A program made the position numbers and the translations under genes. Shown here one piece after another: positions 5,880 through 52,204 of a DNA stretch of 64,000 nt. This stretch comes from a candidate division FCPU426 bacterium (GTDB taxonomy: Bacteria; Oederibacteriota; Muellerivitia; Muellerivitales; Muellerivitaceae), in NCBI GenBank assembly GCA_963796105.1, contig CAWCKJ010000003.1:256001-320000 (forward strand), written 5' to 3'. Each line of letters begins with the position of its first letter. Within the stretch, counting starts at the first letter, position 1. A model generated the notes under the pieces. The model did not search any database. It was not told where the DNA came from and saw only the letters and a list, made by a program, of their open reading frames with translations.

Positions 5880-6022
5880 AGGGAACCTCTAAATATTCAT
5901 TTTAACCCTCGCCCCTTGAGGGAGAGGGTAGGGTGAGGGGTGTTAATTTAAGACAATTTCACTCTCATCCCATCCTTCTCCCCTCCAGGGAGAAGGGGAA
6001 CAGCAATTATTAGAGTTGCCCT
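5880..6022. repeat. MITE/REP-like element family A, copy 1 (empty site)
   Basis: TIRs AGGGAACCTCTAA/TTAGAGTTGCCCT; internal CCCTCGCCCCTTGAGGGAGAGGGTAGGGTGAGGGG also present at 12778 and, reversed, at 43434. Confidence 0.85.
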
Positions 6023-12750: not shown

Positions 12751-12972
12751 AGGGGAACCTCTAAATATTCATATAGACCCTCGCCCCTTGAGGGAGAGGG
12801 TAGGGTGAGGGGTATTTATTCAAAACAATTTCACCCTCATGCCGACCCTTCTATAAAGCTTTTAAAGAGGTCGGTATCGTACCGATCTCCTTAAATTTTT
12901 AAAGATAATCGGTACATCCCATCCTTACTCCCCTCCAGGGAGAAGGTGAACGGTAATTTTTAGTGGTGCCTT
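12751..12972. repeat. Family A element, copy 2, interrupted by a family C element
   Basis: Colinear with 5880-6022 apart from a 77-bp insert at 12841-12917. Confidence 0.85.
12838..12917 (+). mobile_element. Double-hairpin element family C, copy 1
   Basis: CAT-GCCGAC..GTCGGTAT-C-GTACCGAT..ATCGGTA-CAT; the empty site at ~5966 has a single CAT. Confidence 0.8.
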
Positions 12973-15129: not shown

Positions 15130-15208
15130 TTGTGCCGATCTTCCATGAAAGTATATGGAGATCGGTACGATACAAGCCTCACTTATAGATTAATAGATGG
15201 CTGGCATG
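15130..15208 (-). mobile_element. Family C element, copy 2
   Basis: Reverse strand reads CATGCCAGCC..GGCTTGTATCGTACCGATC..GATCGGCACAA. Confidence 0.75.
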
Positions 15209-50547: not shown

Positions 50548-50570
50548 AAAGTAAAAACCTATTTTCACCA

Positions 50571-50648
50571 CATGCCGACTTTCTAAAAGAAATTAAGAGG
50601 TCGGTATGGTACCGATTTCCTTTTTCGTAATATGGAAAATCGGTACAG
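50571..50648 (+). mobile_element. Family C element, copy 3
   Basis: CATGCCGAC..GTCGGTATGGTACCGAT..ATCGGTACAG, inside a CACCACA|GGACACAGAG-type sequence. Confidence 0.78.
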
Positions 50649-50670
50649 GGACACAGAGAAAAACTTACTC

Positions 50671-50860
50671 AAAACCAAGTCCTTGGCCACAGATTCAGGG
50701 GATGCACTTGGATAGGCCAACGAAAAAGGCTTTAAATGTTTATGTTTATTAAATTTCATGAATCCCATGCATGCCAGCCTTCCATAAAACTTTTAAGAGG
50801 CTGGTATTGTACCGATTTCCATAATTGCTTTATGGTGAATCGGCACATCCGTGGCTAGAA
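50671..50860. repeat. Family D repeat (GCCACAGAT...ATCCGTGGC type), left copy, containing family C copy 4 (50770-50848)
   Basis: AAAACCAAGTC..GCCACAGATTCAGGGGATGCA...CCGTGGCTAG; inverted homolog at 51897-52204. Confidence 0.8.
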
Positions 50861-51896: not shown

Positions 51897-52204
51897 TTCT
51901 AGCCACAGATGTGCCGATTCACCATAAAGCAATTATGGAAATCGGTACAATACCAGCCTCTTAAAAGTTTTATGGAAGGCTGGCATGCATGGGATACAAG
52001 GGATTCAACAAGTCTAAATCGTGACAAAGGCTTTGCCTTTGCGCCCGATGGGCGATATGGCTATGCCTGCGGACCGTGAAAAAATTGATTTTTCCATCGG
52101 CCGTCGGCTGAGCCATAGTACACGATCAATAAAATTTTCATTCTAAATCCAATTTTCTTGCCATCCCCTGCATCCCCTGAATCCGTGGCAAAAGACTTGG
52201 TTTT
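51897..52204. repeat. Family D repeat, right inverted copy, containing family C copy 5 (51909-51987)
   Basis: 51897-51995 is the reverse complement of 50762-50860 at 98/99 positions. Confidence 0.85.

Follow-up and report, generated by a model that had tools for sequence, protein, structure and literature searches.

A small twin-hairpin repeat whose centre matches the dinucleotide at which it is inserted

How a non-coding repeat of fewer than a hundred bases comes to lie with clean edges inside other small repeats, and how it finds its place there, is the question raised by five loci in the window, the 64-kb stretch of DNA analysed here (G000:C3:256001-320000, where G000 is the source genome). 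The first-pass annotation had described five copies of a double hairpin with covarying stems. All five were recovered, with covariance-model scores of 73.7-90.7 bits against 19.7 bits for the next-best other locus in the window (Table 1). The element is non-coding, about 75-89 bases long, and consists of two inverted hairpins linked by a three-base centre, with the unit consensus R-TRCC-xxx-loop-xxx'-GGYA-Y-N-R-YRCC-RAT-loop-ATY-GGYR-Y. Its ends, R-TGCC...GGYR-Y, lie within a repeated YR dinucleotide. As the two hairpins are inverted versions of each other, the same layout is found on both strands.

Table 1. Coordinates of the element copies, their host repeats and associated features (plain numbers are positions in the window)
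Feature	Position	Strand	Remarks
Copy 1	12838..12916	+	CA + 77-nt element 12839-12915 (ATGCC...GGTAC) + CA; the 77 nt include the A of the CA on the left and the C of that on the right
Copy 1, hairpins			hairpin 1 ATGCCGAC/GTCGGTAT, then centre, then hairpin 2 GTACCGAT/ATCGGTAC
Copy 1, centre tetranucleotide A-T-C-G	12876..12879	+	directly 5' of hairpin 2; candidate guide
Copy 2	15131..15208	-	centre T-C-G, CA ends; flanked by ruvB and a DinG-like helicase gene
Copy 3	50571..50647	+	centre T-G-G, CA ends; host repeat CACCA^CA^GGGACACAGAG
Copy 4	50770..50847	+	centre T-T-G, CA ends; host D site ATCCCATG^CA^TCCGTGGC
Copy 5	51910..51987	-	body identical to that of copy 4; same site in another host D copy
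Filled family A repeat	12751..12972	+	GGGAGAGGGTAGGGTGAGGGG...CACCCT^CA^TCCC; holds copy 1
Empty family A repeat	5880..6022	+	unoccupied target CA at 5966-5967
Host D repeat with copy 4	50686..50855	+	GCCACAGATTCAGGGGATG...ATCCCATG^CA^TCCGTGGC
Host D end with copy 5	51902..52007	-	extent approximate
CACCACAGAGAC-type host repeat with copy 3	50563..50658	+	extent approximate
Start-codon loci	L032, L057, L051, L020, L050, L058, L148, L003, L054, L139, L180, L192		L032, L057 presumably dnaE-like; L051, L020 presumably guaB-like
TIRYT elements	G000:C11:133902, C3:193643, C3:665009, C7:100369, C2:159178
Insert of ~60 nt in element centre	G000:C2:103367-103509, C2:154140-154272, C2:161022, 161360, 164618, C4:769514-769652
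AAAYGGCAAAGCCRTTT hairpin insertions	G000:C6:183087, C4:589548, C4:903599, C2:97778

The conservation of structure over sequence is borne out by an alignment of 79 related copies from the window, relatives and metagenomes, which were picked from 140 and deliberately enriched for rare variants. In this set 91.9% of cells over 19 named pairs are paired, against 21-40% in slid controls, and 135 cells carry double-sided stem changes against a shuffled mean of 43, a count that none of 500 shuffles reached; the proposed stem covariation is thus real. The pairs 2-48 and 50-91, which join bases of the centre to bases of the end dinucleotide, covary as well. A mismatch near the foot of each stem is fixed, being G.T in 73 of the 79 copies in hairpin 1 and non-pairing in 63 of the 79 in hairpin 2, of the G.T or A.C types. 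The loops are AT-rich, free in sequence and mostly 21-24 nt long between the core stems. Folded as single-stranded DNA, the five window copies give z-scores of -3.2 to -5.9 relative to shuffles, with minimum-energy folds of two hairpins in which hairpin 1 of copy 2 is only partly formed. An Rfam scan of the window for known RNA or terminator families returned nothing but tRNAs at the gathering threshold, and over copies 3-5 only chance matches with E of 3.8 or more.

The edges of the element had been read as a CAT triplet at both ends, and here the earlier description has to be amended. The right-hand CA is followed by G in copy 3 and by A in copy 2, and genome-wide by T in 80, G in 55, A in 12 and C in 2 cases; the repeated boundary is a YR dinucleotide (CA, CG or TA). 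When the element is excised and one dinucleotide is kept, an empty allele is found elsewhere in G000 for 94 of 126 events, with at least three matches for 73, as against 3, 1 and 2 events restored if 0, 1 or 4 nt are kept. Of 600 random intergenic CA sites taken as a control, 113 have a second copy. Duplication of a CAT triplet is ruled out by the flank counts together with this test. The left and right dinucleotides agree in 122 of the 131 copies of G000 that could be parsed.

The comparison of a filled with an empty copy of the family A repeat, which may be linked to DUF559-type genes, shows a clean insertion when the alignment is read by hand, just as had been claimed. The placement of copies 4 and 5 inside family D, which is the GCCACGGAT...ATCCGTGGC repeat, and of copy 3 inside a CACCACA-type sequence also stands, and the target of copy 3 has 11 empty alleles in G000. 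Copy 2 lies outside any recognisable repeat and has no empty allele in G000; the orthologous spacer of the related genome G001 is without it, in a setting where genes of 74-84% identity are too diverged for base-exact alleles. The empty alleles within the genome and an orthologous start-codon site on C8 that is empty in G000 and filled in relatives support the proposal of a mobile, non-autonomous element. That it goes into other repeats holds for 100 of the 126 events, which fall into seven repeat classes defined by regular expressions, the main hosts being two fixed positions in the GCCACGGAT...ATCCGTGGC repeat (51 events) and the CACCACAGAGAC-type repeats (33 events). The targeting is not exclusive, with 17 of 126 events in a CAT, start-codon or other class and 9 unclassified. 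Only 5 of 144 events lie inside ORF calls of at least 150 aa, though such ORFs cover 81% of G000. The flanks of the target are slightly more paired than controls (0.57 vs 0.51, among related sites) and the dinucleotide itself is not, which is a weak sign of a structural target preference. A target in the form of a bulge in the host stem was also considered; it fits family A and not all hosts, and the pairing excess is small.

Repeats of the host D type also occur around a gene. Two GxxExxY (PDDEXK_3) genes are present in G000, at C4:588700-589700 (L029:1100-2300; gene at C4:589026) and at C4:1488850. The former is flanked by host-D-type GCCACGGAT/ATCCCATGCATCCGTGGC repeats, which are dispersed empty across the genome. 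No description of a GxxExxY gene with flanking repeats was found in the library searched, and within that literature the gene-repeat unit looks undescribed.

The centre of the element is related to its target. In copy 1, T2 of the candidate guide complements the A of the left CA and G4 complements the C of the right CA, with position 3 free. Put generally, bases 1 and 3 of the centre Y-N-R complement bases 2 and 1 of the terminal dinucleotide. This rule is followed by 120 of the 131 parsed copies of G000 (106 of the form CA/T.G/CA, 11 CG/C.G/CG and 3 TA/T.A/TA) and broken by 11. It can be followed at single host positions, one of which has a CA allele with 20 T.G and no T.A copies and a TA allele with 2 T.A and no T.G copies, while the CG allele at another holds 10 C.G and no T.G copies. 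The right terminus is variable (GGCA, GGTA, GGCG, GGGA) and covaries with its internal partner. The tetranucleotide at the position of the tag reads A-Y-N-R (ATAG, ATCG, ATTG, ATGG, ACAG, ACTG, ATNA), and both Y2 and R4 take part in base pairs at the feet of the hairpins.

The 31 genomes of the family were searched twice for non-standard centres, yielding loci for 30 matches in the first search and 21 in the second. Outside G000, 11 of 14 T.A copies lie in TA...TA, across three host types and five genomes, and the other three in TA/TT, CA/TA and CA/CA; all four C.G copies have a left CG (2 CG/CG, 2 CG/AG). In G001, copies of one subfamily at the same host position have C.G at a CG allele (L263) and C.A at a TG allele (L267, L277). 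Six copies found in CA have off-code centres (A.G, G.G, T.C); three of these occupy the old ftsE-like site, and such centres are what decayed guides would show. On a tree that omits the trait columns, has few columns and is poorly resolved, TA needs 6 changes and CG needs 4, with 3 of the former and 2 of the latter forced by starred branches. To judge from the copies themselves, the guide rule holds in the relatives and appears to have arisen several times. As the left Y lies outside both hairpins and yet tracks the centre, and as uncorrected combinations are nearly absent, the centre would most simply have picked the target before insertion. The match between the letters of the centre and the landing dinucleotide makes it likely that the element picks its own site by base-pairing.

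A guide of this kind has a counterpart in a known enzyme. In PMC8266576, the TnpA-REP of Marinomonas (TnpA-Mb) cuts CT and CA in vitro; the GTAG tetranucleotide that precedes the hairpin on its 5' side selects C|A through its T2 and G4, and changes to the guide shift the cut. The natural covariation of the element resembles that of this Marinomonas REPtron Mb, in that a C|A-type cut dinucleotide matches positions 2 and 4 of a tetranucleotide 5' of a hairpin. Guide-directed cut choice has been shown in vitro for one TnpA-REP (PMC8266576), and a search of open-access text turned up no account of it in natural copies. How repeats of the REP/REPIN type spread in living cells is an open question, on which hundreds of natural insertions that record the guide rule, with several independent retargetings, exact boundaries and empty alleles, can be brought to bear.

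By analogy, the element is on balance probably REPIN-like and non-autonomous, and would be mobilised in trans, as single-stranded DNA, by an HUH enzyme (Y1, TnpA-REP-like). Such an enzyme would bind a hairpin and read the A-Y-N-R 5' of it as a guide, with Y2 and R4 pairing with the target and position 3 passed over. Cleavage of one strand at Y|R, at the feet of both hairpins, would be followed by resealing of the donor and the release of a single-stranded circle; in its folded dumbbell form, the centre of this circle would hold the circle junction together as a splint. In three of four copies the predicted circular fold is a duplex from which one base bulges out across from the junction. The circle would insert at the same Y|R step in exposed DNA, that is in hairpin-forming repeats, open promoter or start-codon regions, or its own junction, and arrays could come from insertion into this junction or from rolling amplification. 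With the mirror guide on the other strand (A-C-N-A for T|G), either strand could be the substrate. Surviving copies would be those outside coding sequence, or those in start codons with translation rescued. The record of the guide rule in natural copies makes the mechanism testable with short oligonucleotides and provides a bait for the enzyme.

The likeness to REPINs and BIMEs goes beyond the guide and includes an inverted hairpin pair as the mobile unit, an extragenic location, hundreds of copies, tandem arrays and a stem mismatch. In the accessible parts of the respective papers, group 2 REPs are said to require a stem mismatch and BIMEs to be inverted REP pairs, often in tandem (PMC8266576), a REP doublet is treated as the mobile unit (PMC3116915), and dimers with spacers of 1-2 bp in O. 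terrae as well as REP families without a known transposase are described (PMC3733652). By analogy, then, the element would work like a REPIN. Unlike REPs, it carries the tag A-Y-N-R in place of GTAG, GTGG, GGAG or CGTC. Unlike in REPINs, its two tags overlap, sharing the 3 nt of the centre, the cut sites adjoin the hairpin feet immediately and pair with the guide inside the stem, the hairpins of about 38 nt each fold separately and have long AT-rich loops, the guide varies naturally with the target following, and no REPtron (a tnpA-REP flanked by the repeats) was found in the draft genomes. As tag sequence and cognate REPtron, two of the defining tests of a REP, came out differently here, the element is best regarded as a variant and not as a member.

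The enzyme was sought well beyond the window, in which none had been visible, and inspection of G000 and its relatives likewise gave no HUH, RAYT or IS200/605 partner. The Y1 genes of G000 comprise two IS200-like genes (151 aa) and about 14 of the TIRYT type (about 318 aa), with ends unrelated to the element, and 34 regions around Y1 matches in relatives (20 + 14) contained neither the element nor element-like ends. RAYTs seen in G024 have ordinary GTAG REPs. In a survey of draft genomes, where absence is no proof, eight genomes that bear the element gave no Y1 match (G004, G007, G018, G019, G021, G023, G041, G046), and the three family genomes without the element (G008, G012, G017) have TIRYT matches. 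No autonomous form, carrying a gene within its hairpins or between them, turned up among 54 partial matches or orphan hairpins of G000. It had been suggested to look for an HUH, RAYT or other transposase gene next to the copies; no gene family recurs there, be it among 253 neighbouring ORFs in G000, 691 ORFs from loci in relatives and metagenomes, or 70 proteins from dense regions and the window (a subset of 125 dense-region proteins, plus 8 window proteins). IS1595 adjoins 4 of 58 copies in G000.

Screens by enzyme type gave a similar picture. In G000 there was no match for a reverse transcriptase and none in a screen for IS91 Y2 proteins, in which the positive control was likewise without a match, and a scan for the HUH motif, which also missed the two IS200-like genes, returned only TIRYT-type Y1 genes and metabolic enzymes. 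No integron integrase scored above the TIGR02249 cut-off in any of the 31 family genomes. A single IS110 gene and two large serine recombinases (512 and 608 aa) occur in G000, with no visible link to the element. TIRYT, the only class 2 Y1 of G000, was considered as the mobiliser and is a weak candidate, since its ends are unrelated and its presence does not track the element; an event is found no more than 500 bp away for 3 of 13 TIRYT copies and for 4 of 53 IS1595 copies. The earlier guess of an HUH substrate gains one specific argument, as the centre Y-N-R predicts the target dinucleotide like a TnpA-REP guide, and is left without its partner gene. With no cognate HUH, RAYT or IS200/605 gene found in G000 or the relatives inspected, the class of the enzyme remains an inference.

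Several observations on these genes were made in passing. TIRYT elements, with GGGGTCAGG ends, often abut tandem arrays of unrelated units, one of them lies about 150 bp from an 8-unit array of the twin-hairpin element, and many TIRYT ends read CA..GGGG / CCCC..TG. The right end of the G000 IS110 (L031, G000:C13:24000-27500) lies directly against TIRYT inverted repeats in G001 (L064, L073; on both sides in L073), which suggests that this IS110 targets TIRYT ends. A divergent Xer-like tyrosine recombinase of 320 aa is encoded in a housekeeping context at G000:C3:368879-369841, and no canonical XerC/XerD pair was obvious among 36 integrase matches.

Since no partner HUH gene was found and no gene recurs beside the copies, the main rival to the HUH reading is a different enzyme acting on the same single-stranded dumbbell, for which an integron- or CTX-type tyrosine recombinase, a host Xer-like protein or another host enzyme would qualify. 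We regard it as rather unlikely. It would exchange one strand at Y|R, check one or two bases of homology against the centre strand and leave the junction to be resolved by replication, and a two-base homology check would yield the same covariation. The predicted circle, with its single bulged base opposite the junction, recalls attC; moreover, the element is found family-wide while no Y1 gene tracks it, and the small excess of pairing in the related target flanks would fit such an enzyme as well. This is countered by the lack of an integron integrase above cut-off, by targets without a common recombinase box beyond Y-R^YR, and by a skip-one guide geometry that is exactly that of the TnpA-REP scheme in the accessible sections of PMC8266576. 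The HUH reading has to face objections of its own, namely the missing cognate enzyme, the unrelated ends of the Y1 genes of G000, the draft genomes in which element and Y1 matches do not coincide, a guide that is not GTAG and whose Y2 and R4 are paired in the hairpin feet, unlike the free REP tag, and the copies that break the rule. In addition, 96 of the 98 bodies outside arrays in G000 differ from one another, which is unusual for a recently active family, and no bias towards one replication strand was seen (54:54 with 36 ambiguous, a weak test given the weak skew). An enzyme other than a Y1 HUH protein would mean a new way for DNA to move. A bolder version, tentative and in our view doubtful, holds the repeat to be a new class of minimal self-guided element, a single-stranded dumbbell of about 77 nt in which the centre would be both junction splint and target program. 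In place of a transposase flanked by REPs, its mover would be an enzyme conserved in the family, unlinked to the element and without a known role in DNA movement, and the element would have been repeatedly retargeted (CA, CG, TA) and recruited at start codons as a translation-compatible 5' leader.

Explanations that work with double-stranded DNA or with RNA fare worse. Partnership with an IS110 (bridge RNA) or an IS607-type serine recombinase, using a 2-bp core and a double-stranded circle, is improbable: the dinucleotide common to circle junction and target, the palindromic junction GGCA-CA-TGCC, the arrays and the presence of one IS110 gene in G000 would suit it, but the loops do not match the target flanks (12 tests on 98 copies gave no signal, with z reaching 1.73 at most), the flanks of the G000 IS110 copy are without element ends, the two large proteins are the only serine recombinase matches, and a double-stranded model does not need the distal stem covariation. 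Also quite improbable is an ordinary MITE, mobilised by a DDE transposase that duplicates 2 bp of the target, with the centre corrected later by hairpin template switching. Short terminal inverted repeats (TGCC...GGCA) and the agreement of left and right dinucleotides speak for it; however, the right terminus is variable and has its pairing partner inside the element, the dinucleotide changes with the centre, and the fixed G.T and A.C mismatches have been left uncorrected. No IS with these ends was among the elements inspected, a set that excluded the ends of other multicopy IS. What largely refutes such a MITE is the near absence of uncorrected combinations of centre and allele, with no T.G centre at the TA or the CG allele of the two main hosts. 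The most improbable of these readings is an RNA element, retro-mobilised or spliced from transcripts, in spite of both strands folding, many sites lying at gene starts, and the reverse strand starting with GTGCC and ending with AT, which group II intron ends loosely resemble. G000 gave no reverse transcriptase match and Rfam no family, the scarcity of events in long ORF calls argues against splicing, and the start-codon copies are filtered for frame, which goes against their removal by splicing.

Other small mobile elements offer partial parallels to the HUH-moved element favoured here. Integron attC cassettes and the attP(+) of CTX phage are folded single-stranded substrates with an extra base, a variable sequence and a conserved structure, and undergo single-strand exchange. 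Unlike attC cassettes, the element has no IntI in the 31 genomes, no RYYYAAC/GTTRRRY cores and no cargo gene, and its targets are dispersed. The SDR elements of cyanobacteria, reportedly described by Elhai in 2008, are said to be very small structured repeats that insert cleanly and in some cases into other repeats, and the double-hairpin elements of fungal mitochondria share these properties; both differ from the present element in size, sequence and hosts, and we know of no guide-target rule in either. For IS200/IS605, the available portion of PMC6006769 gives the same guide logic and single-stranded circles, with TIRYT as subclass 2.1. Like IS200/IS605 and PATEs, as far as the available portions of PMC6006769 and PMC3119063 go, the element has end hairpins, guide-selected cleavage, no need of a true duplication and a predicted single-stranded circle. 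Unlike IS200/IS605 PATEs, its target is a dinucleotide and not 4-5 nt, it is symmetric on both strands, its hairpins are terminal instead of subterminal, and its ends have no sequence link to resident IS200-like elements. The SMR-A repeats of Haloquadratum, in the available portion of PMC3119063, are about 100 nt long, lack a transposase and have a strong preference for palindromes of other mobile elements, as does the element for other repeats, and their mobilisation is called enigmatic. They differ in their prominent terminal inverted repeats and identities above 95% among copies, and no twin-hairpin or internal-guide architecture is reported for them in that portion of the source.

The family is large. 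In G000, whose size is 4.98 Mb, 203 loci match a profile made from 77 distinct seed copies, and 149 of them are near full length. Several matches from genome contigs and metagenomes lie by chance in coding DNA and were left out of the evidence (for example L002, L005, L007-L009, L017, L019, L022, L025, L096 and L097). Divergent members with the same architecture and the stems GTCCC/GGGAC, CCACT/AGTGG or CCGCT/AGCGG were seen at G000:C4:1403774, C5:4292, C3:19528, C6:282036, C4:572240 and C4:684012, and the true family is therefore larger than 203 loci. Isolated single hairpins are rare in G000. Ten head-to-tail arrays of 2-8 units each are present in that genome. Among four that were inspected, three have identical units and one mixes two types, the units always being joined by a single CA. 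Covariance-model matches, for which 47 candidates were scored per genome, occur in 27 of 30 other genomes of the family and in none of 68 other genomes of the phylum; a half-element pattern was likewise found in 27 of the 30 and in 4 of the 68, there as isolated matches at chance level. A search of viral contigs for the element gave no match. G044 and G006 hold many copies with equal model scores, which suggests recent bursts.

The start-codon copies show how the element is tolerated and kept beside core genes. At a unique gene start near position 66090 of C8 the site is empty in G000 and filled in G002, G003, G016, G018 and G041; the gene is presumably an ftsE-like ABC ATPase. By hand count, 20 reverse-oriented copies lie in a start codon that is regenerated at both ends, after 7 of 27 rows of the reverse class were dropped for want of a regenerated upstream start codon or for ORFs inside repeats. 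The length of these 20, which are not independent as some are orthologous, is divisible by three in 6 cases (5 of them open in frame) and leaves a remainder of two in 14 and of one in none, as against a remainder of one in 81 of 201 other copies. In 11 of the 14 with remainder two, an upstream ORF of about 26-29 codons ends in a TGA that overlaps the ATG of the gene. Judged by their reading frames, the start-codon copies would thus keep translation intact, either in frame or via ATGA coupling, and the frame filter is selection on the outcome of insertion. Several have TATAAT or TAATTT 6-7 bases upstream of the start, which suggests leaderless genes. Some start-codon sites are filled in several genera, with stems intact and loops drifting. 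A possible ribosome-binding site, GGAG, is present in loop 2 of the forward copies found at the ftsE-like start.

A few loci of G000 show further forms of the element. An identical block with three copies lies on two contigs beside response-regulator genes (G000:C6:200046-200500, C7:97606-98060) and is a segmental duplication or an assembly repeat. Variants at tRNA 3' ends have tandem copies (G000:C4:1278239-1278636, C8:2257-2411, C2:4126-4186), those at C4 and C2 with C.G centres and CG ends, and as their left arm begins with CACCA the tRNA end is regenerated. In several copies a small AAAYGGCAAAGCCRTTT hairpin lies within hairpin 1, sometimes in place of part of the stem. The centre of the element is itself a target for a further insert of about 60 nt (CAGATTTACTATAAATCTG...GCGGCCTG), which lies at GG^TA with TA on both sides and is a third level of nesting.
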